10,043 nucleotides of DNA from a virus. Taxonomy: Duplodnaviria; Heunggongvirae; Uroviricota; Caudoviricetes. Under the pieces are notes generated by a model. The model was not told the origin of the DNA. It saw only the letters and a list, made by a program, of their open reading frames with translations, and searched no databases. Shown here piece after piece: positions 1 to 10,043 of the stretch. The stretch is from positions 1 through 10,043 of IMG/VR virus record IMGVR_UViG_2639762982_000013. The stretch is one strand, 5' to 3'. The first letter of the stretch is position 1. Each line of letters starts with the position of its first letter. Both the position numbers and the translations under genes were made by a program.

Positions 1-516
1 ATGAAATTTAAAAAATGTCTTCTGCCTGTGGCAATGTTAGCGTCATTCACTCTGGCAGGATGCCAGTCAAATGCTGACGATCATGCCGCCGATGTTTATC
101 AAACCGATCAACTGAATACCAAACAAGAAACTAAAACCGTTAATATTATTTCCATTCTTCCCGCAAAAGTTGCCGTAGACAACTCCCAAAATAAACGGAA
201 CGCACAAGCCTTCGGCGCGCTTATTGGCGCAGTCGCTGGCGGTGTTATCGGCCACAACGTCGGTTCTGGCAGCAATTCCGGAACGACGGCAGGGGCAGTT
301 GGCGGCGGAGCTGTAGGCGCGGCAGCGGGTTCTATGGTGAATGATAAAACCTTAGTGGAAGGTGTTTCTTTAACATATAAGGAAGGCACCAAAGTGTATA
401 CCTCTACCCAGGTGGGTAAAGAGTGCCAGTTTACGACAGGTTTAGCCGTTGTTATTACCACAACGTATAACGAAACGCGTATTCAGCCAAATACTAAATG
501 TCCTGAAAAGAGCTAA
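1..516 (+). CDS. yfgH: Outer-membrane lipoprotein with glycine-zipper domain (YfgH-like); host gene
   Basis: 171-aa ORF. Lipoprotein signal peptide with lipobox LAGC (Cys21). Gly/Ala-rich GxxxG zipper segment (GALIGAVAGGVIGHNVG...). Gene symbol from memory of E. coli K-12 yfgH (same length class), not verified. Confidence 0.8.
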   Translation: MKFKKCLLPVAMLASFTLAGCQSNADDHAADVYQTDQLNTKQETKTVNIISILPAKVAVDNSQNKRNAQAFGALIGAVAGGVIGHNVGSGSNSGTTAGAVGGGAVGAAAGSMVNDKTLVEGVSLTYKEGTKVYTSTQVGKECQFTTGLAVVITTTYNETRIQPNTKCPEKS

Positions 517-531
517 TAATCAGGAGGAGTC

Positions 532-1071
532 ATGAAGAAAGTTTTTCTTTGCGCCATCTTGGCCTCCTTAAGCTATCCGGCTATCGCCTCATCATTGCAG
601 GATCAACTCTCTGCTGTAGCAGAAGCTGAACAGCAAGGTAAAAATGAAGAGCAAAGGCAGCATGACGAATGGGTCGCGGAGCGCAACAGGGAAATCCAGC
701 AAGAGAAGCAACGTCGCGCAAATGCCCAGGCCGCCGCTAACAAAAGAGCGGCAACGGCAGCAGCAAATAAGAAAGCTCGTCAGGATAAACTGGACGCCGA
801 AGCCTCTGCGGACAAAAAACGCGATCAAAGTTATGAAGATGAGCTACGCAGCTTAGAGATTCAGAAACAAAAACTGGCGCTGGCGAAAGAAGAAGCCCGC
901 GTTAAGCGAGAAAACGAATTTATCGATCAGGAACTGAAGCACAAAGCTGCGCAAACCGATGTGGTGCAATCTGAAGCTGACGCCAACAGAAATATGACTG
1001 AAGGCGGTCGCGATCTGATGAAAAGCGTGGGCAAAGCAGAAGAGAACAAATCGGACAGCTGGTTTAATTAA
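532..1071 (+). CDS. yfgI: Secreted/periplasmic charged coiled-coil protein (YfgI-like); host gene
   Basis: 179-aa ORF, strong SD AGGAGG 7 nt upstream. Sec signal peptide (…AIA/SS), then K/E/Q/A-rich low-complexity helical region. Synteny with the preceding yfgH-like gene; symbol from memory. Confidence 0.75.
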   Translation: MKKVFLCAILASLSYPAIASSLQDQLSAVAEAEQQGKNEEQRQHDEWVAERNREIQQEKQRRANAQAAANKRAATAAANKKARQDKLDAEASADKKRDQSYEDELRSLEIQKQKLALAKEEARVKRENEFIDQELKHKAAQTDVVQSEADANRNMTEGGRDLMKSVGKAEENKSDSWFN

Positions 1072-1110
1072 TCGATGTTAGTAACTTCAAGCCTATGATT
1101 CTTGAAGATA

Positions 1111-1142
1111 AAAAACCCTCTGTAGTAACAGAGGGTTTTGTT
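1111..1142. terminator. Bidirectional rho-independent terminator downstream of yfgI
   Basis: A5-CCCTCTG-tagtaa-CAGAGGG-T4: 7-bp GC-rich stem with A-tract before and T-tract after, so it is readable on both strands. Confidence 0.6.
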
Positions 1143-1267
1143 CATTCATAGTGCAGGGATTAAAATCATTCCCACTCAATTATTTACGACACGCATAACC
1201 AATTGACTGATAACAACTTTCTGCAACCTGACTTTCACCGTACCGTTTTATATACCGTCACCGAAAA

Positions 1268-1765
1268 TCAGTACCACGATTTTTGCTTCTTCAGTGAATC
1301 GTATTGCTGTTCGCAGGATTCTCCTGCAATCCGATACTTTTCAGCCTCAGCTGCTGTTGCGTTGTAAACTCGATTGCTTTCTTCAAGCATGTCGGCGAGC
1401 ACACCGATGACCTTGCTGGCTGGCGTGCCAGTGGGGAAAGATCCGGTATAGTGTTCGGCGAGTCGCTTGGTTTTGTCAAGCTCGGCGCGCAGGCTGTCAG
1501 CAGCGGCATTAGCATGCTCAGCATCAACACGCGCCACATCGATACGGGATTGTGCTTCACGTTCAATTTGTGTTTTCTCCTGATCACGTTGTGACCTAGC
1601 CTTATCATTAGCCTGTTTCTGATCTTCCTGTGCCTGCGCATACCCGGCGTCGTACTGACGACTGCCGTGTGCATTCCAGGCTACAACTCCTGATATGACC
1701 AGAACAGCAAGCATCGCCATGATAACCAACTGTTTCCAGTATGCTTTTACGAATGCCCAGATCAT
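1268..1765 (-). CDS. Phage i-spanin (Rz-like inner-membrane spanin subunit)
   Basis: 165 aa with N-terminal TM helix, then charged helical periplasmic domain. Start overlaps endolysin stop (ATGA). Last gene of the lysis cassette and contains an embedded lipoprotein ORF. Confidence 0.7.
1291..1539 (-). CDS. Phage o-spanin (Rz1-like outer-membrane lipoprotein), embedded in the i-spanin gene in another frame
   Basis: Internal Met of the 127-aa alternate-frame ORF gives [17 protein letters not shown]…: signal peptide plus lipobox LTAC, then a Pro/Ser-rich short mature region, as in lambda Rz1. Fully nested in 1268-1765. Exact start uncertain (alternative Met at 1524); no strong SD. Confidence 0.55.
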   Translation of the reverse strand: MWRVLMLSMLMPLLTACAPSLTKPSDSPNTIPDLSPLARQPARSSVCSPTCLKKAIEFTTQQQLRLKSIGLQENPANSNTIH

Positions 1766-2391
1766 ACCGCCAGCGCCTTACTGGCAGTGATGTACCGAGC
1801 GCGCCGGTCGTCGATGCCGTTCCTGCCACCATTGATAATCAGAGTTACACGTGCAATATCGCCGGTATACTTCATGCAACCTTTGCTGGAGAAGAACCAC
1901 GCCGCGCTACGAGCCGCGTATTCGTCCTGCGCCAACAGTTCAGGATTCTCCAGCAGGTCCACTTTCAGGCCGTTTCCGCAATCACGATAGTTATTCAAAC
2001 CGGTAATCTGGATAAGTCCGCGGCCACGGTAATTCCAGCCATCACCAGAGGCATTGTTCCCCATGCGTTTGCTGTACACCAGATTGGCGATCGCTCTCTG
2101 GCGCTCGAGTGGCAATGGTGGTTCACCAGCACGGCGACCAAGTGCATTAGCCTGTCCCTGAGTGAGACGCCCAGCCCGAACGAAGTTAGCCAGTCCGGTG
2201 ACGCTGTAGTTGAAATTTTCCTGCAACCGGGTGAATCCACCAGACTCATGCCCGACCTGAGCAATAAACATTGCCTGATCTTCAGCTTTGCTGATACCAA
2301 ACTCTTTCATCGCAGAAGTTATATGCGAGAACCAGCGTGCGGCCAGCGCCTCGCTAATACCAGCAGCTCGCTGGAATTGTTTAATCTCCAT
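1762..2391 (-). CDS. Phage endolysin, glycoside hydrolase family 19 (chitinase class I-like)
   Basis: 209 aa. Motifs [21 protein letters not shown] and AAWFF typical of GH19 phage lysins. SD GAGG 8 nt upstream. Flanked by membrane proteins and spanins. Confidence 0.9.
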
Positions 2392-2689
2392 GTTTAGACC
2401 TCGTTATTTTAAAAATCTGCACGACGTTACCGCGCGTTTTAATAACCGCAGCTAGCATGACAGCGTTGATAATGACCTCAGATAAATCCACAGCCATTGG
2501 CGTACGTAACCAGATTGCATAGGCGACACGAACAGGAATACTGGCCGCAGCAACAATCAGGAAATAAGCAAGCCATCCTCCCCACCTTCGGTGTTGAGAG
2601 CCGTTACGCCGGAATGTGACAACGCGAATTGCTATGCCAGTGCAAATAACTGCATTGGTGATAAGCAAAAAAAACTCATGCGTTACCAT
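2381..2689 (-). CDS. Lysis-cassette small membrane protein (holin/antiholin-like)
   Basis: 102 aa with 2-3 predicted TM helices. SD GGAG 8 nt upstream. Overlaps the upstream gene by 14 nt and the endolysin start by 11 nt, indicating translational coupling. Confidence 0.55.
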
Positions 2690-3089
2690 CGTCTTTTCTC
2701 CCCGGAATTAACTCGCGTGGATTATCGGAACGGTGATAAAGCCATATACCAATTCGCACAGCGACAATTGACGACACAAATGCGCCAGCAGAGAAGACGA
2801 TCCCTTTCTCGAAAGAGTCCTGCGTGATGGTAGGGATCAGGCTGGCTACACCGATAAGGATGGATGCTGTAGGTTTGTAAAAGAGAAGGCCGCAGAGGAA
2901 GCTGAGCATAGACAGGAGAACCCGGCGATGAATGGGATACTCGATGGCTGAGGTAACAAAAATTACCGCCCCAGCCAAAGCTCCCAAAGCCACCTCTGGA
3001 GGAACCCCTGCTATCACCGCAGCAAGAGAACTCGCACTAAGCCACTGATTTAAAGACTCACTGGTTAGCTGAACTGACATAAAAAACAC
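2676..3089 (-). CDS. Putative holin (multi-pass membrane protein), first gene of lysis cassette
   Basis: 137 aa with 3-4 hydrophobic helices and a charged C-terminus. Position directly upstream of the endolysin. Start may be the second ATG at 3080. Family not recognised. Confidence 0.55.
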   Translation of the reverse strand: MFFMSVQLTSESLNQWLSASSLAAVIAGVPPEVALGALAGAVIFVTSAIEYPIHRRVLLSMLSFLCGLLFYKPTASILIGVASLIPTITQDSFEKGIVFSAGAFVSSIVAVRIGIWLYHRSDNPRELIPGRKDDGNA

Positions 3090-3185
3090 CGTTTAATGTG
3101 CATAAAGAATCCCCTTAGTTGGTTAGTTCATCATACACAATAAACCATATGTGGATTAAACTTGATCTGATAATTCTTAACGAAA

Positions 3186-3200
3186 TTACCTTAAAGGTGA
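3186..3200. promoter_or_regulatory. Palindromic site A (TTACC-TTAAA-GGTGA), member of a five-copy family
   Basis: Lies in the 212-bp gap between the tail fibre and the lysis operon, about 100 bp upstream of the holin start. One mismatch from a perfect palindrome. Flank ATATC is shared with site C. Confidence 0.4.
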
Positions 3201-3301
3201 TATCATAAATATCCTTGTGTCATTTAAAATTAGAGTTAGGGCATGATAGCCAACATACAATATTTGCGTTTTCTCGCTGCATTCCTTGGCGATGACTTCT
3301 C

Positions 3302-5065
3302 TTAAACAACAATTTTAAGGAAATTTGAAGCATCCTTATAGATGGTGCCCGCGGTGGCGCCGTTTATCTCCTCAAGCGTTTTTACATTCTTCAAAACCAC
3401 CTTGCCATCTTCCAGAAATTCAATGCATGGTGCGTCGTTGTTCATGTTTATTTTCAACGAACCAACAGCACTACCTCCGTTTCCGCTTATCCATTCAAGT
3501 GACGCAATAGGAAGTGCATTGCCGTTGTGATCTGTCCCTTGTAGCAAGATCCTTCCAGTTCCTACCCCTGGTATTCTGATAGCTGCGCGACCACCATCCT
3601 CTAAAACTACTTCCAAAATTTCTTTAGGATATTTTGTGTGCACTCCTACACGCGTCAGCGAACCACCACCACCAGGGACGACGGCAATACCTGGAATAAG
3701 CGATTCTGCAAAAAGCATCACTGAGTCTTTATGTGGATTGATTGCTGGCTTATCGTCATTAGTGCCGCTCCCTATCGCAATCGAACCACCATAAGCCTGA
3801 ATATTCTTACCTACAGCAAAAGAGCCATCTCCTGCCGCGCGAGTTCGATATCCAATGGCTGCCGCACCAATGCCATCACTTGCAACCCCGCCGGGGTCTG
3901 TAGTGTATCCCGGTCTGGCTTGTGTATAATAACCTGTTGCAAAAGCCGCCCTTGAAAGCGCTTCCGTTTCTTCACAGAATGCGGCAGATTTTGCTCCAAG
4001 AGCAATGACATTTTTCCCAAATGCAAAAGAGCAGTACCCCTCAGCATTTGGTGAGGTAATATGATCTGGGTCCCCAGTGGCAGAACCAGCACCACCGGCA
4101 ATAGATGCCACGCCGTACGTAACGCAGTCATGCCCGAAAGTTGTGGTGTATACCGCGAATGACGCACCGTTTCTGTTAAAAGATACTGAGTAATCACCGA
4201 TAAGAGCCGGGTTACACCATGAATTTCTCGGTGTAGGCAAGCCTCTCCAGAAGTTCTTTTCATCGTCAAGTGGTAGGAGATCGGCACCACCAATTCTCAG
4301 CCAACCTTTATCCTTATCAAAAGAAAAAGTGACGCCATCGGTTAAAGTAGATCCAACCGGTATACCGTAATTAACTTTTGTGCCAATCCTCTTAAGCCCG
4401 TCAGGTTGCGCCAGCAATAACAGAACATCTGCTGCACTACCGCTCTCAGGCAAGACCATAATGGACTCACCTGCATAATCATATGCATGGATCATATTTG
4501 CACGTTCTGCAGCAGGAGGGAGTTGCCGCGTAAATGACTCTGGAACCCTTAACGTGTGCAGATAGTTGTTGTTACTAATCGTGTCTACATAATTTTTAGT
4601 GGCAGCATCCTGCGGGTCTCGTGGGTCGCGCAGGTTGCGAATGTAATTCCCCAGCGCGTCGTACCAGTTAGCGATGGTTGATGGCTTGCGCAGCGCCAAG
4701 GCAAACCAACTGCGAACCTGCTGGATCAGCATCGTCAGTTTATCGAATGCGTCTTCATGCACCTCAGCGAAGAACTTACCCTGGTTGCGCAGATCGGTAT
4801 CCTGCGTAACCGGTAGCTCTCTTGATATAGAAATCTGATAACCGTTAGCCAACGCCTTCGACAGAATTACATTGCCGCCGTTATACCCTCCCGCACCAGT
4901 GACTATGTAATCAGTATCAAGAATCAGCTCTGTGATGTTCTCGTTCAGGTCAACAACCTGCACTACTAAATCAGATTTCTGGAAAATCCTGAAGGTATAA
5001 GGGAATGCCGTTGTAACACCGTTACCTGTGTATTCGTTGTGGTCAACTTCGGTTGAGACCGTCAT
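3302..5065 (-). CDS. Phage tail fibre / tailspike protein
   Basis: 587 aa. The N-terminal ~150 aa (MTVSTEVDHNEYTGNGVTTAFPYTF…DYIVTG) resembles the conserved T7 gp17-type virion-attachment domain. The C-terminal two thirds are Gly/Ala/Ser-rich with repeated beta-strand-like motifs (SFAVGKN, SIAIGSGT, IGAAAIGY), as in trimeric receptor-binding domains. Confidence 0.85.
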   Translation of the reverse strand: MTVSTEVDHNEYTGNGVTTAFPYTFRIFQKSDLVVQVVDLNENITELILDTDYIVTGAGGYNGGNVILSKALANGYQISISRELPVTQDTDLRNQGKFFAEVHEDAFDKLTMLIQQVRSWFALALRKPSTIANWYDALGNYIRNLRDPRDPQDAATKNYVDTISNNNYLHTLRVPESFTRQLPPAAERANMIHAYDYAGESIMVLPESGSAADVLLLLAQPDGLKRIGTKVNYGIPVGSTLTDGVTFSFDKDKGWLRIGGADLLPLDDEKNFWRGLPTPRNSWCNPALIGDYSVSFNRNGASFAVYTTTFGHDCVTYGVASIAGGAGSATGDPDHITSPNAEGYCSFAFGKNVIALGAKSAAFCEETEALSRAAFATGYYTQARPGYTTDPGGVASDGIGAAAIGYRTRAAGDGSFAVGKNIQAYGGSIAIGSGTNDDKPAINPHKDSVMLFAESLIPGIAVVPGGGGSLTRVGVHTKYPKEILEVVLEDGGRAAIRIPGVGTGRILLQGTDHNGNALPIASLEWISGNGGSAVGSLKINMNNDAPCIEFLEDGKVVLKNVKTLEEINGATAGTIYKDASNFLKIVV

Positions 5066-5169
5066 GTTAAATCTCCAGATAGTCGCAGCACCCGTTGCGC
5101 CGCATATCTGGTTATTCTATTACCTGAAAAACCACATATGGATAGAAAGACTATAAATACCAATAGATA

Positions 5170-5184
5170 TTACCTTTCGGGTAA
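5170..5184. promoter_or_regulatory. Palindromic site B (TTACC-TTTCG-GGTAA)
   Basis: Perfect 5-bp inverted arms with a 5-nt spacer in the divergent region between the tail fibre gene and the small SOS-box gene. Confidence 0.4.
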
Positions 5185-5221
5185 TTTGCAAAACGTGCTG
5201 GATAGCAAACAAATTATTTGA

Positions 5222-5241
5222 TACTGTATATTTATACAGTT
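5222..5241. promoter_or_regulatory. LexA (SOS) box
   Basis: TACTGTATATTTATACAGTT matches the E. coli LexA consensus TACTGTATATATATACAGTA at 18/20, with CTGT-N8-ACAG intact. Located 20 bp upstream of the ATG at 5261 and overlapping a plausible -10. Confidence 0.7.
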
Positions 5242-5260
5242 ATTGCATGGAGAAGATAAG

Positions 5261-5518
5261 ATGCAGCAGTATCACTATCCACTGGAAGACGGATTTACCG
5301 AAAGGATTCACACGCCGGGAGGCGTCAGGTCACTGGTGGAGGGATCGCACTTGATGAAATTACTCCGGGATCTCGATAAGGATGGATTTAATGTCGATGG
5401 CCCACTTGCCGAACTGACTGCACTGATTAACTACGTCACCAGCTCACAGATGTCTATGCTGGATCTGCAAACACATCTCGACTATTGTGCCGAACAATTA
5501 CGAAAACAAACCCGGTAA
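5261..5518 (+). CDS. Small SOS-regulated protein, candidate Tum-like antirepressor (homologous to C-terminal domain of the AntA protein at 6669-7325)
   Basis: 85 aa from the ATG at 5261 with SD GGAGAAG; the ORF track extends it to a TTG at 5243. Roughly 40% identity by eye to the last ~80 aa of the 218-aa AntA-domain protein (IH[TS]P[GS]GV…LM.LL..L..DG..V.G..AELT…D.QTH..Y). LexA box immediately upstream. Confidence 0.6.
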   Translation: MQQYHYPLEDGFTERIHTPGGVRSLVEGSHLMKLLRDLDKDGFNVDGPLAELTALINYVTSSQMSMLDLQTHLDYCAEQLRKQTR

Positions 5519-5522
5519 ATTT

Positions 5523-5542
5523 AAAGGCCGCAAGAGCGGCCT
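5523..5542. terminator. Bidirectional rho-independent terminator between convergent genes
   Basis: AGGCCGC-aaga-GCGGCCT stem-loop with A-rich 5' flank and T-rich 3' flank. Sits between the + gene ending at 5518 and the - gene ending at 5541. Confidence 0.6.
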
Positions 5543-6269
5543 ATCGTTTCGCTTTGTGCTCGTCCCAGCACGTTTTGCACCATGCCATTAAGCCATCCGC
5601 ATTTTGATTATTAGGGTAAAAGCTTGTTCGTTTTCTGCGGACATTACAAATTGGGCACCACTTCATATGGCGTGTATTCTTTGGGCCATCGAGACACCTT
5701 GCACACCACTTAGTCAATCCATCTGGATTTTTTGACGATTTCCTGAATTTTTCATATGGTAGGTTTATTCTGCATCGCAAGCACTGCTTGCTACCACTTG
5801 AAACTCTGTTAGCTGATTCTTCTTTTGGCGGCGATACAGAAGGTATTCTTGCTGGCTCTGATACTGCCTGAGGTGCTTTTTTAGATGACTGAGACGATAT
5901 GTCATCACCAGGGAATCTTCCATGATATGCCGGACGCGTTGACACTCCAGGTGGAAGCTCAGCTGTAAACGGCTTTGGCTGAATCAGTTGCCTCTCTTTT
6001 GCTAACTCCTGCTGTTTATAATATGTCTGGATTACCGCACTATCATAAGCAGGAGGTGCGGAAATATTAGGCGCATTACCTCCAGTTTTTTGAAACTGAG
6101 TAGAGGTGTGTTCTATCACCTGTGTACGATTAATCGTTATCTCCCCATCTTCGGTCTTTATCGTTTTGTTATGATTAACGACCGTACGATCAGAGATCTT
6201 AGTCTTGTTCTGGTTGATAACGTAAATAATCACCGCAACCACACCAACAACTATCCAGAAAACTTCCAT
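5541..6269 (-). CDS. Membrane-anchored protein with tandem C4 zinc-ribbon repeats (function unknown)
   Basis: 242 aa. N-terminal TM helix (residues ~4-20) followed by K/R (positive-inside), a Pro/Ser/Gln-rich linker, then two copies of CxxC-x16-DGL-x2-WC-x2-C. SD GAGGA 8 nt upstream of the ATG. Confidence 0.7.
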   Translation of the reverse strand: MEVFWIVVGVVAVIIYVINQNKTKISDRTVVNHNKTIKTEDGEITINRTQVIEHTSTQFQKTGGNAPNISAPPAYDSAVIQTYYKQQELAKERQLIQPKPFTAELPPGVSTRPAYHGRFPGDDISSQSSKKAPQAVSEPARIPSVSPPKEESANRVSSGSKQCLRCRINLPYEKFRKSSKNPDGLTKWCARCLDGPKNTRHMKWCPICNVRRKRTSFYPNNQNADGLMAWCKTCWDEHKAKR

Positions 6270-6289
6270 TGCTTTTCCTCACAATAACA

Positions 6290-6304
6290 TTACCTTAAAG
6301 GTAA
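6290..6304. promoter_or_regulatory. Palindromic site C (TTACC-TTAAA-GGTAA)
   Basis: Perfect palindrome about 10 bp upstream of the SD of the minus-strand zinc-ribbon gene. Core identical to sites A and D. Confidence 0.4.
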
Positions 6305-6382
6305 TATCTTGCTTTCAGGTGATCAAGCGTTAAACGCAATCAACCAAATACGGTTGATTTTAATATTTCTTCGCGTTTATCA

Positions 6383-6397
6383 TTACCTTTGCGGTAA
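6383..6397. promoter_or_regulatory. Palindromic site E (TTACC-TTTGC-GGTAA)
   Basis: Same arms as the other sites, with a spacer like site B. Lies just upstream of the structured leader preceding the AntA gene. Confidence 0.35.
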
Positions 6398-6488
6398 ATT
6401 TACATTGCACTCCTCTTGTGCCATAGTAATCGGGCACTGGCAAAATCCAGTGCCGGGATTGGTCTCCCGGATTACTAAGTGGCGCATA

Positions 6489-6510
6489 CCACGCCAGACG
6501 TGGTTTTTTT
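6489..6510 (+). terminator. Putative intrinsic terminator / attenuator hairpin in the leader of the AntA-like gene
   Basis: CCACG-ccaga-CGTGG followed by T7. Preceded by two GC-rich hairpins (6433-6454 and 6453-6470) that share bases, so alternative pairings are possible. Confidence 0.4.
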
Positions 6511-6668
6511 ATGCGTATAGCACAGTCATGCCAGAATTATGGTGGGCTGAATGGGGGTCCGAAAGGACGCCGGTACCACTTAGGCCGGTAAGACCAACTC
6601 CGTTCAGTTCACCACCATCTGATTGGTCTCAGCGGTGGTGATGTAATTCGCTAAGTGGAGACGCCATC

Positions 6669-7325
6669 ATGAACGCTCAACTCATCCCCGTATTCAACGG
6701 CACTATATCTAACGAAACAGCCCTACTTTGTAATGCCCGCGATCTGCACGCTTTTTTAGGTGTTAAAAAGGTGTTTGCAGCATGGATTACAAATCGCATA
6801 TCAGAATACGAATTCATTGAAAATCAAGACTATATTTTGCTTTCCAATTTGGGAAAGCAAACATCTGGTAGAGGCGGCCACAACCGCAAAGAGTACCACC
6901 TCACCCTTGATACAGCCAAAGAGCTGGCGATGGTCGAGCGTAACGAAAAAGGTCGCCAGGTGCGACGCTACTTCATTGAATGCGAGAAACGTTTAAGACA
7001 ACAAGAAACAAAAGTGGAGAAGGTCTTGTCAGGCTTCATGCCCGCCATTATGGAGGCGATCAAGCTGGAAGACAAAAAAGAATACAGCGCCCCACTGAAG
7101 CCCGGCTACCGCAGCCTGATTCATTCGCCGTCTGGTGTTCTTGGACTGACGGAGAACTCACTGCTGATGAATCTGCTGAACCAGTTACAGGACGACGGGC
7201 ATGACGTATCGGGCGCGGCGGCGGAGCTGACCACCATGTTCTGCTACATCGTCGGTGTGAGCAAATGCCTGCGTGATATCCAGACGCACGCGGAGTACAT
7301 CAGCGACAAAGCAGGATTCTTCTGA
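6669..7325 (+). CDS. Phage antirepressor-like protein, N-terminal AntA-type domain with a C-terminal domain shared with the 5261-5518 protein
   Basis: 218 aa, SD GGAG 8 nt upstream. N-terminal region ([10 protein letters not shown]…[33 protein letters not shown]) matches the AntA/pRha-type antirepressor N-domain pattern. C-terminal ~80 aa is paralogous to the small SOS-box protein. Confidence 0.8.
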
Positions 7326-7391
7326 CGGGCGGCGGCACAGGGATGTGCCTTTAAAATAATCATTGGCGATGTGATGTAGATTCGCGTAATA

Positions 7392-7406
7392 TTACCTTAA
7401 AGGTAA
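7392..7406. promoter_or_regulatory. Palindromic site D (TTACC-TTAAA-GGTAA)
   Basis: Perfect palindrome about 43 bp upstream of the ATG at 7449, the first gene of the low-GC two-gene module. Confidence 0.4.
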
Positions 7407-7448
7407 ACCTGTTTTTATTTTATACCTGTAACTTACCGGAGATTAAAG

Positions 7449-7775
7449 ATGACAAAACTTGGATTCGTGATGAGAGGTCCGGTAAGAAGCGGAACTCATG
7501 CAAAGCGTAGCAAGAGTCGTATTTTTACTGGTAAGGTTGTAGCACGTAAATCAGCTATTGGCTCGTTCAATAGTGAAAATGCGGCATTGCGCCATATTTT
7601 TATCAGCACAAAGCCAAGAGCATCCGCTGATGTGCATACAATGTCTATTCCTATCACAAAGAATATAAAGCGGATAAAAAAGCTCTCATCTGCAGAATCA
7701 AAAGAGATATCTTTCCGCCAGCTTAACTCATTAGAAACGCATATGAAGGAAGAGGAATTCGATGTTTTTGAGTGA
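7449..7775 (+). CDS. Small highly basic protein, candidate antitoxin / partner of the downstream YafO-like protein
   Basis: 108 aa, SD GGAG 8 nt upstream. Very K/R-rich N-terminal two thirds and an acidic C-terminal tail (EEEFDVFE). Overlaps the downstream gene by 14 nt. No recognisable Phd/YefM or other antitoxin fold from sequence. Confidence 0.5.
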   Translation: MTKLGFVMRGPVRSGTHAKRSKSRIFTGKVVARKSAIGSFNSENAALRHIFISTKPRASADVHTMSIPITKNIKRIKKLSSAESKEISFRQLNSLETHMKEEEFDVFE

Positions 7776-8274
7776 GTATAGCGGGAAGGTTATACCTACT
7801 GGTGAGTTTAAAACTGATGACTTTCTGATTTCGCTAAAAGATGCTTTTAAACAACACTGGCGTCATGGTCATCATCCTGATCTGGGAAAAGATACTCTTT
7901 TTGAAAGACCAGACGAAGTATTAGGCTTCCATCTCAGAAAGGTTCATGTCAATATTGGTGAATATGCATCATATTCATACTCATGTACTGAACAGTGTTG
8001 GGATGAGTGGTCATATGGATTGATTGATGAACAAGGAAATTACAGGCCAAAACCAACCAGTAACGCATATCTCATATATGCAGTCAATGAAATAAGAGAT
8101 GCAGCCTTACTAGCTTATTGGGACCCGCCCGCACACACCAAAGCTAACGCAAAAGTTTGGATGGATTCCGTATTGAATTTCACAAAATTATTTCATGAAC
8201 GAACGAATACAGCCCCACTTAGTAGAAATGTTTATCCGTGGGATTATTCGTACAAATCCAAAAAGCCTGCATAG
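7762..8274 (+). CDS. YafO-like toxin-domain protein (putative ribosome-dependent mRNA interferase)
   Basis: 170 aa with a strong SD (AGGAAGAGGA). From memory of E. coli YafO, the motifs align: PDLGKDTLFE / FHLRKVHVNI / AYLIYAV…AALLAYWDPPAHTKA versus YafO PDIFGRDALYD / FERVAHIHLA / AHLVYCQ…AWLLIAILKPEPHKLA. About 40 aa longer than YafO. Local GC is about 38-40% against about 50% in the flanks. Confidence 0.55.
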   Translation: MFLSEYSGKVIPTGEFKTDDFLISLKDAFKQHWRHGHHPDLGKDTLFERPDEVLGFHLRKVHVNIGEYASYSYSCTEQCWDEWSYGLIDEQGNYRPKPTSNAYLIYAVNEIRDAALLAYWDPPAHTKANAKVWMDSVLNFTKLFHERTNTAPLSRNVYPWDYSYKSKKPA

Positions 8275-8355
8275 TAGTTTTTTATGGACGAAACAAAAGT
8301 CAGTGCTACACTCATTGACGCCACATTGAGGTGGCTTATAGATGGAAATGTCACA

Positions 8356-8517
8356 ATGAAAAAAGCATTTGCTGCACTGTTCGTTTTGTTGTCTCTGGTA
8401 GCTTCAACTCAGGCCTTTGCCGGTCGTTGTCAGCACGACAGCGATACTGCCGCTGACGGCTCCCGCTGCGGTGGGCGTTCTGCGGATTCCCGCCCGGGCG
8501 GTGGTGGCATTCGTTAA
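8356..8517 (+). CDS. Small secreted Cys/Gly-rich peptide (hypothetical)
   Basis: Internal Met of the 77-aa ORF gives MKKAFAALFVLLSLVASTQAFA/GRCQ…, a canonical Sec signal peptide with AxA cleavage site and a ~31-aa mature peptide containing 2 Cys and a Gly-rich tail. Weak SD; local GC is high. Confidence 0.4.
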   Translation: MKKAFAALFVLLSLVASTQAFAGRCQHDSDTAADGSRCGGRSADSRPGGGGIR

Positions 8518-8522
8518 AAACA

Positions 8523-8540
8523 AGGCCGCGAAAGCGGCCT
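8523..8540. terminator. Bidirectional rho-independent terminator (mainly for the minus-strand membrane-protein gene)
   Basis: AGGCCGC-gaaa-GCGGCCT, near-identical stem to the terminator at 5523-5542. On the minus strand it is followed by TTTTTAAC. Confidence 0.55.
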
Positions 8541-8548
8541 GTGACATG

Positions 8549-8845
8549 TCACACTCTTTTTCTGAATGATAGCCATTCGAAAAATGATGACATTCCACCG
8601 CAGACAATAGCAAAGATGATCCCACCAAAGAATAGAAGGCCAGCCTGCCACCACTCCCACCGCCATACATCCACAGCGCCAACCATACCAACAATCGCTC
8701 CAACAAATGGAATATAGCTCACGATGAAAGCAATGGGGGCTGCAATTATCCAGTGCAATCCCCACCATGATTCAAGCCCAGCCATAATTGCTGCCAACTG
8801 AAAAAGACCAACGACGATATAAACAATGAATCCTATCGCTTGCAT
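8549..8845 (-). CDS. Small Trp-rich integral membrane protein (3 predicted TM helices), function unknown
   Basis: 98 aa, hydrophobic throughout with a WRWEWW motif. The terminator lies immediately downstream. A possible 50-codon hydrophobic ORF with a GTG start (8858-9010) sits 14 nt upstream. Confidence 0.6.
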   Translation of the reverse strand: MQAIGFIVYIVVGLFQLAAIMAGLESWWGLHWIIAAPIAFIVSYIPFVGAIVGMVGAVDVWRWEWWQAGLLFFGGIIFAIVCGGMSSFFEWLSFRKRV

Positions 8846-9040
8846 GTAGTTACCTATTTACCCAGTAAAAATCAGAGGCCTCCCCTCAATAAGGCTTGCA
8901 ACAAGAACTACTCCCTGCACAACAAAGATGAACCAGCAAATAGCTTGAGTCTGAGGGTTAAGAAAATATTTGTAGCGGTCAATAAATAACAGTCCACCAG
9001 AAATTATCACACTCAAAATAATTAAAAACACAACACTTCC

Positions 9041-9865
9041 TTATTGCGGAGTGACATCCTGAGGTCGCCACCAGTATGTCTGGTTAAACTCTTTCTTCGA
9101 ACGTTGCTCCATTTTACGCAAATAGCCTGGTGAAAAATACTCCTGCATCTGGTTAAAGATCATGTGATCGAGAGCCGCCTTCAAGTACCAGAGATTCGCA
9201 CCAGGCATCAAACCTTTCCCCAGCTTCACCAGATCACCACCAGTCTGCTCACTCTTCCCTTCCACAGCATTTAACGGTATGCCCTGAGCAATCTTCACTA
9301 CGTCATCAACCAGACCAGCTACCGGGCCAAGCATCGACGCCAGCGCGCCGCTTCCGTACCTAGTGTGATCTGACAATAAAAAGTCACCGTAAAGGCCAAG
9401 ACCACCACCTTTCAGTAGAGCACCAAGCCAAAATTTAGCAGCATCTTCTCCTGTCATCTCGCGAGGATTACGACCAGACGCAAGGTCGTTAAGTTGCTGC
9501 GACAAAGCGCCAAGAATGGTCGTACTGGCAATAAACGTCGCAATATATGCCGCACGCCCACCAGCAGACGGCATACCCATAGCGCGTGACCAGTGACGCA
9601 TAACCACCGAGATAGGGAACGATTTAAACAGGAAAACACTTCTCGTTAATTCACCTTTCCATGTTCCACGCTGAATACCAGAACCGGTTATCAGTTGCTC
9701 ACGTGCTCCCGGTGTAATAACAGCCATATCAACTTCTTCAGTTACGGCACCGAGCAGTTTACGCATTGCCTCAAATTTCACGCGTTCAGGCTCACCAAGA
9801 TGTTTAACTGCTGAATCAGGGATACGCATAATGCTTTCCGGTGTCAGCATCGTATTATTACCGTT
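9041..9865 (-). pseudogene. 3' fragment of a phage protein (possibly virion/ejection-associated) truncated by IS2 insertion
   Basis: The 283-aa ORF listed from 9892 takes its first 9 codons (MSGNIGANP) from inside the IS2 terminal repeat. The native reading frame continues upstream across the IS boundary at 9865/9866, so the N-terminal part of the gene lies beyond IS2. No family recognised. Confidence 0.55.
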
Positions 9866-10043
9866 TGGATTTGCCCCTATATTTCCAGACACCTGTTATC
9901 ACTTAACCCATTACTGGCTTGCTGCCGTAGATATTCCCGTGGCGAGCGATAACCCAGTGCACTATGCGGATGCCATTCGTTATAATGCTCGAATGCCTCT
10001 GCAAGGTTCTTTGCTGCCGTTAACCCGTCTGGTTTGGGCATGA
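9866..10043 (-). mobile_element. IS2 (IS3 family), partial: right terminal repeat and 3' end of the transposase; the element continues beyond the window
   Basis: The reverse complement of 9866-9908 reads GGTTAAGTGATAACAGGTGTCTGGAAATATAGGGGCAAATCCA, which matches the IS2 right end as I recall it. The adjoining ORF encodes an IS3-family transposase C-terminus. Confidence 0.8.
9877..10043 (-). CDS. insD: IS2 transposase OrfB (InsD) C-terminal end, partial
   Basis: Minus-strand translation …[54 protein letters not shown] with stop at 9877-9879. The motif [13 protein letters not shown] is characteristic of the IS3-family integrase C-terminus. The 5' part is outside the window. Confidence 0.8.

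Follow-up and report, generated by a model that had tools for sequence, protein, structure and literature searches.

The 10,043 nucleotides at positions 1 to 10,043 of IMG/VR record IMGVR_UViG_2639762982_000013, referred to here as the window, are the right end of an epsilon15-like (Uetakevirus-type) Escherichia coli prophage, and they contain an open reading frame (ORF) of 242 amino acids, the target gene, that raises a simple question: what does a temperate phage gain from a protein that appears to be anchored in the inner membrane and to hold two zinc units in the cytoplasm? An earlier description of this stretch (the original prediction) proposed that architecture, did not recognise the family, and offered superinfection exclusion, anti-sigma-like sequestration or the sensing of a component of an invading phage as possible roles. 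We report that the zinc units are modules of the type found in HNH and endonuclease VII enzymes, probably without catalytic activity, and that the genomic contexts of the gene favour a cell-protective role linked to immunity.

Architecture and conservation of the protein

The protein aligns end to end with the profile phrog_6762 (E = 1.1e-150, residues 1–242 to profile positions 1–242 of 242), and by this match the family that could not originally be placed is PHROG 6762, listed as function unknown. Because this PHROG is without functional annotation, membership in itself explains nothing, and scans of the full protein against Pfam, NCBIfam and PADLOC gave no family above threshold. The sensitive profile and structure searches that had been proposed as a check also found endonuclease VII/HNH modules and the zinc motif of PacI. 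The parts of the gene and protein are listed below, with structural assignments taken from AlphaFold2 (AF2) models scored by the predicted local distance difference test (pLDDT).

5541–6269, minus strand: target ORF, 242 amino acids plus stop codon, ATG start, member of PHROG 6762 (ORF list, full-length phrog_6762 match)
6204–6263, minus strand: predicted N-terminal transmembrane (TM) helix, residues 3–22, signal anchor, N-out/C-in (AF2, hydropathy, positive-inside bias)
6111–6188, minus strand: predicted juxtamembrane beta-hairpin, residues 28–53 (homologue conservation and AF2 strands)
5805–6089, minus strand: Pro/Ser/Gln-rich variable linker, residues 61–155 (composition, low pLDDT, homologue variation)
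5694–5783, minus strand: zinc unit 1, residues 163–192, C163-x2-C166-x22-C189-x2-C192 (invariant Cys, AF2, Stc1 profile, PacI superposition)
5568–5657, minus strand: zinc unit 2, residues 205–234, C205-x2-C208-x22-C231-x2-C234 (invariant Cys, AF2, PHROG matches)
5525–5542, no strand: G+C-rich hairpin, 7-bp stem with six G-C pairs, overlapping the target stop codon (terminator scan)

A GAGGA sequence at 6276–6280 lies 6–10 nt 5′ of the ATG, and the hairpin at the other end of the gene, between the convergent target and gp19-like ORFs, is likely to be a bidirectional terminator.

The single N-terminal TM helix of the original prediction is recovered at residues 3–22, with an AF2 pLDDT of about 90 and a Kyte-Doolittle hydropathy of 2.33. 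Its proposed N-out/C-in topology also gains support, in that the helix has only M-E before it and K22, K24 and R28 after it, and an excess of Lys and Arg after the helix over those before it is found in 68 of 69 family members (mean 3.5 against 0.06). Cys4 zinc sites belong in the reducing cytoplasm, in agreement with the C-in orientation. The helix is followed by a hairpin with strands at residues 28–39 and 42–53, modelled by AF2 with moderate confidence only, in which T39, G42 and E43 are invariant or nearly so across homologues; it is a possible oligomerisation or partner-binding element. The Pro/Ser/Gln-rich linker, described at the outset from its composition (34% P+S+Q over residues 61–155), is predicted to be mostly disordered, with low AF2 pLDDT and one predicted helix at residues 77–93. 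Its length and sequence differ among homologues, such that the distance from the TM helix to the first Cys varies from 87 to 144 amino acids. The first 60 residues (with N21, T39, G42 and E43) are as conserved as the zinc domain, and the linker is not conserved.

The zinc domain is confidently modelled at residues 160–242, with pLDDT above 90 for both units, and when modelled alone it has a pLDDT of 92.4 and a predicted template modelling (pTM) score of 0.75. Both units fit the pattern CxxC-x16-DGL-x2-WC-x2-C exactly, as had been described; the description of them as near-identical does not stand, since they have 11 of 30 residues in common. The original prediction depended on the cysteines being conserved in homologues, and all eight, together with W188, are invariant in 49 diverse relatives with identities down to 21%, in which K161, F175, D183, G184, K203, R212, D225, G226, L227 and W230 are near-invariant. 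The domain is basic (20 K/R against 6 D/E, isoelectric point 9.9), and we infer that the Cys4 units bind zinc.

Several lines of comparison agree on what these units are. PHROG profiles match them through the N-terminal segments of endonuclease VII, HNH endonuclease, endonuclease and Lar-like families (E = 2e-11 to 2e-5), with residues 197–242, containing unit 2, matching the N-terminal modules of endonuclease VII, HNH and Lar-like PHROGs. The Pfam profile Stc1 (PF12898) aligns with residues 161–193 at E = 5e-4 to 1e-4, without reaching its gathering cut-off of 24.8 bits (21.0 for the full protein, 23.3 for the C-terminal domain); of 40 related C-terminal domains, 19 reach E ≤ 0.01 against it, the best value being 1.5e-6, and relatives with multiple repeats pass the cut-off with up to 56 bits. 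Structure matches come from the domain-only AF2 model, the full-length model being mostly disordered and giving noise only in a Foldseek search of the PDB (E ≥ 2.8). Using the domain-only model in Foldseek, the N-terminal zinc motif of PacI (3M7K) superposes on unit 1 at 1.0 Å over 34 residues with 26% identity, and BFVD yields 38 matches with E ≤ 1e-3, among which the names HNH, beta-beta-alpha-Me, endonuclease VII or Stc1 are borne by many. A profile match in the PDB to Stc1 itself (2LUY) has E = 8.3 and is not significant. [quoted passage not shown]

Hpy99I, the best match of solved structure, is instructive as to what such modules do, as it contains two tandem repeats, each with one structural zinc held by two CXXC motifs, of which the second forms the active beta-beta-alpha-Me site (D148, H149, N165) and the first, a copy without catalytic function, reads the major groove of the DNA (PMC2699513). 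The required catalytic His (PMC2699513) has no invariant or near-invariant counterpart in either unit in the 49 sequences, and no metal-ligand Asn or His is conserved after the second CXXC of either. The residues found there are L193 (invariant in close relatives) and W235, an equivalence judged from sequence and not from residue-level superposition. Because neither unit has a conserved His or Asn, both would be catalytically dead copies like the first Hpy99I repeat, and nuclease activity is not expected. By analogy with that repeat, the units presumably bind nucleic acid, most likely DNA, without cutting it.

The 30-residue CxxC-x22-CxxC unit also occurs outside this architecture, in 2–12 tandem copies in many soluble proteins among the best 150 relatives. 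These include fusions to ResIII/DEAD (superfamily 2) and superfamily 1 helicase, HNH, KilA-N, HEAT/winged helix-turn-helix (wHTH), DnaJ and WhiB domains (repeat-bearing proteins P0045, P0060, P0074, P0090, P0104, P0108, P0111, P0159 and P0173), and most repeat-bearing proteins lack Pfam annotation across the repeats. The helicase, HNH, KilA-N and wHTH partners, like the basic charge of the target's own zinc domain, speak for an association of the unit with nucleic acid. Independently of the function of the target protein, the unit is a common and poorly annotated repeat whose binding specificity is worth defining.

The family is widespread and patchily distributed. A word-indexed search gave 33 relatives in Enterobacterales, and an exhaustive search with a full-length family profile gave approximately 1,700 cluster representatives at E ≤ 1e-3; the whole architecture is kept in approximately 79 fetched cluster representatives (50% identity). 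Serratia, Providencia, Yersinia and Aeromonas have relatives, as do many metagenomic phages, and homologues are found in only six of 50,697 phage records. Approximately 10% of complete E. coli genomes contain DNA matching the 1.5-kb stretch with the target gene, and 128 of 5,426 carry most of it. Phage epsilon15 does not have the gene, and its gp18 and gp19 genes abut across a terminator at the corresponding place; because of this, the accessory island carrying the target gene in the window is best explained as an insertion. Absence from epsilon15 and the patchy distribution both agree with the accessory status originally assigned to the gene.

The ORF is nonetheless well maintained. It is intact at 242 amino acids in 102 of 104 E. 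coli-type loci, and also in phage TL-2011b, where it is annotated only as a misc_feature, so the disruption in related prophages that would have told against the original prediction is not seen. The TL-2011b copy had seemed disrupted, with a tblastn match to residues 19–242 only and the misc_feature annotation, and this was rejected on finding the DNA identical through the start codon. When 39 E. coli-type alleles are compared with the window, the ratio of nonsynonymous to synonymous substitution rates (dN/dS) is 0.10–0.35. Against the most divergent allele the zinc domain has dN of 0.010 and dS of 0.105, and the linker dN of 0.068 and dS of 0.092. On these values the gene is under purifying selection, with the zinc domain its most constrained part.

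Immunity-linked contexts and candidate roles

We surveyed genomic context in 177 fetched loci, whose proteins were grouped at 80% identity into 24 lineages. In five of these lineages (25 loci), exemplified by Aeromonas phage phiARM81mr, the gene lies 11–18 nt after a gene for a Cro/CI-type helix-turn-helix (HTH) repressor on the same strand, and the repressor has a Peptidase_S24 domain in four of the five. Because there is no room for a separate promoter, the natural reading is that the gene would be the last of the cI operon and co-transcribed with the repressor. In most other lineages, including that of the window, the gene forms a one-gene cassette in an accessory or immI island of podovirus prophages, the hosts being E. 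coli, Serratia, Providencia and Yersinia. This island follows the ejection-protein genes (T7 gp14-like, SLT transglycosylase and a protein of approximately 1,000 amino acids) and precedes the tailspike or terminase genes, and the neighbours of the target gene within it include antirepressor-type genes (AntA, KilA-N/ANT, pRha and ORF6N), HicA and a HigA-like antidote.

In the window this neighbour is antA, an antirepressor gene as originally proposed, and the target gene and antA are divergent and share an intergenic region of 400 bp. A 17-bp palindrome, ATTACC-N5-GGTAAT, has five intergenic copies in the window, against 0.01 expected, and two of them are in the shared region.

3185–3201: operator copy
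5169–5185: operator copy
6289–6305, no strand: perfect epsilon15-type operator copy, 19 nt 5′ of the target start codon
6298–6326, minus strand: putative sigma-70 promoter, TTGATC-17-TACCTT, with the -10 inside the operator (read from sequence)
6382–6398, no strand: second operator copy of the 400-bp region, one mismatch, on the antirepressor side
6669–7325, plus strand: antA (AntA match, E = 4e-26)
7391–7407: operator copy

We take the palindrome to be the operator of the phage repressor, on the strength of the epsilon15 RefSeq feature table; in that RefSeq record the perfect copies of the motif coincide with features annotated as 'protein_bind: repressor' and lysogeny. The idea that it is the target protein's own binding site was rejected, the motif being spread over epsilon15, which does not have the gene, and being annotated there as a repressor site. 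A complete related prophage contains approximately 13 copies, 5′ of most transcription units and also in the repressor/cro-like region (immC), and the repressor seems to control many dispersed transcription units, as C1 of phage P1 does. The operator-bearing regions of the window include the divergent region between the tailspike and gp19-like genes and the region upstream of the holin genes.

The two copies at 6289 and 6382 are 93 bp apart, centre to centre. The second abuts the -35 of a promoter-like site at 6399–6427 that precedes isrK, C4 and antA. No promoter was called for the target gene by the promoter scan, the putative TTGATC-17-TACCTT promoter falling below its threshold; this would be the only plausible promoter for the gene, and a Serratia homologue has the same geometry, with TTGAAC-17-TACCTT inside GTTACCTTAATGGTGAT. 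The target gene and the antirepressor operon are thus probably both in the regulon of the repressor of the window's phage, and the placement of the operator would be compatible with expression early after infection and low expression in lysogens.

These contexts favour an immunity-linked, cell-protective role, by exclusion or by sensing, because all of them tie the gene to immunity and because the gene is accessory and patchily distributed and its product is predicted to be membrane-bound with a DNA-type module facing the cytoplasm. The reading that we prefer, if tentatively and with somewhat less than an even chance of its being correct, is that of an immunity-linked protein that works on DNA at the inner membrane, on its cytoplasmic side, with exclusion or abortive infection as the result. 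The N-terminal helix would anchor the protein with essentially no periplasmic part, and beyond the hairpin beneath the membrane the flexible tether would carry the basic tandem zinc modules into the cytoplasm. There they would bind the DNA of a superinfecting phage at the membrane face without cutting it, to the benefit of the lysogen or of a newly infected cell. The outcome could be a direct block to entry, as in superinfection exclusion (Sie), or a membrane effect of the anchor, oligomerised upon DNA binding, as in abortive infection (Abi) of the Rex type. A full Rex-like device in one polypeptide, in which the dead zinc modules sense foreign DNA or a DNA-protein intermediate as it emerges at the inner membrane and the hairpins and TM helices assemble into a membrane-depolarising oligomer, is a rather unlikely form of this.

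Several observations weigh against a protective role. A -10 inside the operator argues for low expression in the lysogen, unlike that of a classical constitutive Sie gene, and P22 SieA acts on the periplasmic/membrane ejection conduit, whereas the target protein is predicted to have no periplasmic domain. Zinc modules of the Stc1, LIM or RING-like kinds can bind proteins instead of DNA. PADLOC-DB v2 contained no family matching the target or seven neighbouring ORFs at E ≤ 0.1, and no solved structure was found by sequence, using phmmer and a profile search of PDB sequences. Finally, adjacency to immunity genes is guilt by association, and a regulatory role would fit it equally well.

Such a regulatory role, in which the zinc modules hold an antirepressor, the repressor or a host factor at the membrane and so influence the choice between lysis and lysogeny, is unlikely; the protein might provide the immunity circuit with a post-translational safety catch, or link induction to the state of the envelope. 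The gene is always found in immunity regions, either in the cI operon or divergent from AntA, KilA-N/ANT or pRha-type genes; it has an operator-bearing intergenic region in common with the antirepressor, in two of the cI-linked lineages cro, too, is followed by antirepressor genes, and there is the resemblance of the units to Stc1, in fission yeast a tandem zinc finger that binds protein. However, the neighbouring antirepressors are of different families with no constant partner among them, the L017 and Buttiauxella loci have none within 5 kb, and antirepressors are so common in temperate phages that proximity to one says little. The best structural and profile matches, moreover, are to DNA-acting nuclease modules and not to protein-binding fingers. 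If DNA is what the protein binds, it might be the phage's own, with the protein serving as a membrane anchor in replication, in packaging or for the incoming genome, as p16.7 does in phi29. The p16.7-like architecture, the basic DNA-type modules and an operator-controlled promoter that would give expression on infection or induction are consistent with this, but we judge it distinctly unlikely for a gene that is accessory, absent from epsilon15 and represented in so few phage records, that has no conserved pairing with replication genes, and that in five lineages sits in the cI operon and would be transcribed in lysogens in which no phage replication takes place.

The same position in the cI operon bears on the suggestion, improbable in our view, that the protein is a host-takeover or toxic factor that tethers the nucleoid non-specifically to the membrane and inhibits host replication, segregation or division during the lytic phase in the manner of Kil or Icd. 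P1 immI also carries the division inhibitor icd, and the target gene has an immI module of the P1 type (ant with isrK/C4 RNA) next to it, has a putative repressor-controlled promoter, and encodes a basic, membrane-tethered module; a toxic product co-transcribed with cI in several lineages would nevertheless harm the lysogens, and scans of Pfam, PHROG and NCBIfam revealed no similarity to known Kil or Icd proteins. It is hardly credible that the gene is the functionless remnant of a decaying HNH/endonuclease VII homing endonuclease with a chance hydrophobic leader. Zinc units without catalytic residues that resemble the N-terminal modules of phage endonucleases are what such decay would leave, but 24 lineages among the fetched loci and approximately 79 representatives of clusters at 50% identity retain the full architecture, residues 1–60 equal the zinc domain in conservation, and the dN/dS values of 0.10–0.35, with the tightest constraint in the zinc domain, and the 102 of 104 intact E. 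coli-type loci all point to maintenance. The anti-sigma role suggested originally, as a ZAS-type protein, found no support, there being no HxxxCxxC motif, no anti-sigma match in Pfam or NCBIfam and no sigma gene nearby.

Searches of the literature on TL-2011b, on the operators of epsilon15, on the occurrence of Stc1 in phages and on zinc-ribbon genes for defence that lie downstream of repressors returned no paper on the target family. Each of its parts is of a kind already known, be it the signal-anchor helix, the disordered tether or the HNH-type zinc repeats, and it is the combination and its immunity-linked placement that are undescribed. Should the protective role be true, this would be a widespread and unannotated single-gene family for phage exclusion or defence, differing in principle from the Sie proteins known so far, whose targets are receptors or the periplasmic conduit; should the Rex-like form be true, it would be a new defence family linked to the repressor operon and derived from a domesticated nuclease fold. 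The target gene is in any event a well-defined, widespread and cheaply testable candidate.

Neighbouring genes and other features of the window

The remainder of the window is laid out as follows.

1–1071: host genes yfgH and yfgI
1268–3089, minus strand: lysis cassette
3302–5065, minus strand: tailspike gene
5243–5518, plus strand: gp19-like ORF, 91 amino acids

The prophage/host junction is at 1072–1267, between yfgI (ending at 1071) and an Rz-like gene (ending at 1268). In the complete relative of this prophage the other end is beside guaA, with an integrase, in agreement with guaA as the reported attachment site of phages like epsilon15 (PMC9782041).

The ORF at 5243–5518, convergent with the target gene, was originally called an SOS gene, and this does not hold. 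The ORF has 83% identity to gp19 of epsilon15, where gp19 is one of the core genes and is divergent from the tailspike gene; it is also 41% identical to residues 134–214 at the C-terminus of AntA, and matches phrog_450. With these similarities and no Pfam match, a DinI/SOS identity was rejected. By its sequence the ORF is the antirepressor C-terminal module in free-standing form. A small gp19-like ORF adjoins the target homologue in Providencia and the tailspike gene in Serratia. In the window the gp19-like gene is bracketed by a perfect inverted repeat of 15 nt, TGCAAAACGTGCTGG at 5187–5201 and CCAGCACGTTTTGCA at 5565–5579, whose arms are 363 nt apart, one upstream of the gp19-like ORF and the other within the 3′ end of the target ORF; it may be the trace of a recombination event where the inserted island ends.

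Directly upstream of antA, the stretch 6421–6619 on the plus strand contains Rfam matches to a1/b1 target sites (6421–6473, below the gathering score), isrK (6434–6510, 67.7 bits) and C4 antisense RNA (6535–6619, 61.2 bits). Together with antA this is a P1/P7-type immI antisense-RNA control module in an epsilon15-like prophage. On the 3′ side of antA, two ORFs of 108 and 170 amino acids overlap by 14 nt at 7449–8274 on the plus strand and have their own operator copy. The 170-residue product has a weak YafO_toxin match (E = 9.5e-4, below the cut-off), and the two may be a toxin-antitoxin pair. They are followed by an ORF of 77 amino acids at 8284–8517 with a hydrophobic, signal-like N-terminal segment.

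The ORF at 9041–9892 on the minus strand matches only positions 555–831 of the 840-residue virion structural protein profile phrog_684, and is adjoined by an ORF at 9877–10041 for the C-terminal part of a DDE transposase (rve_3). Because an insertion sequence (IS) element thus appears to truncate an ejection-protein gene, the prophage copy in the window is probably defective.

Comparison with known systems

The closest structural counterparts of the zinc units are in Hpy99I (3FC3), PacI (3M7K) and, at the N-terminus, phage proteins that bear the names endonuclease VII or HNH, in which, as in the target protein, the CXXC pairs are placed on a hairpin and at the start of a helix. Like other beta-beta-alpha-Me modules the units would have one structural zinc per 30–60 residues or so, and their tandem arrangement is common to Hpy99I; they differ in being shorter, with x22 between the Cys pairs, and the membrane anchor is found in the target protein only. 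The fission yeast protein Stc1 (PF12898, 2LUY) has a similar tandem arrangement of eight Cys residues with similar spacing. This tandem zinc finger binds protein, Stc1 being a soluble adaptor of a eukaryote with Ago1 as its partner, and its biology is not transferable to the target protein.

Among phage proteins, SieA of P22 offers a parallel in position, both being inner-membrane proteins of temperate podoviruses encoded by a single accessory-island gene between the ejection-protein and immI/tailspike genes. On the P22 map the interval from gene 16 to gene 9 contains sieA, mnt, arc and ant, a slot equivalent to that of the target gene. There is no sequence relationship between the two. SieA is expressed from the prophage, sits in the inner membrane and blocks DNA injection, and is a protein of 162–164 amino acids with three TM segments and the cytoplasmic motif FxRYPxEAxxFNK, in a family of roughly 160 residues with three or four TM segments (PMC10883804). 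The target protein is not of the SieA family, having one TM helix, no FxRYPxEAxxFNK motif in its sequence, and a zinc module that SieA does not have, and the gp16/gp20 conduit on which SieA acts is unlike the DNA target proposed here.

In layout the target protein is like p16.7 of phi29, with its N-terminal TM anchor, spacer and cytoplasmic C-terminal DNA-binding domain. This is the product of an early gene of a lytic phage and acts in replication; its DNA-binding fold is unrelated to the zinc modules, and the target gene differs in being accessory and immunity-linked.

The rexAB genes of lambda sit downstream of cI, and BstA is likewise co-transcribed with a prophage repressor, a position downstream of cI and on the same strand that the target gene shares in five lineages only. 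Compared with RexA and the four-TM RexB, the target is one polypeptide with one TM helix and has no sequence similarity to either. The logic of RexA and RexB, with a DNA-associated sensing part and a membrane part, is nonetheless that of the architecture proposed here, in which both parts would be joined in one chain.

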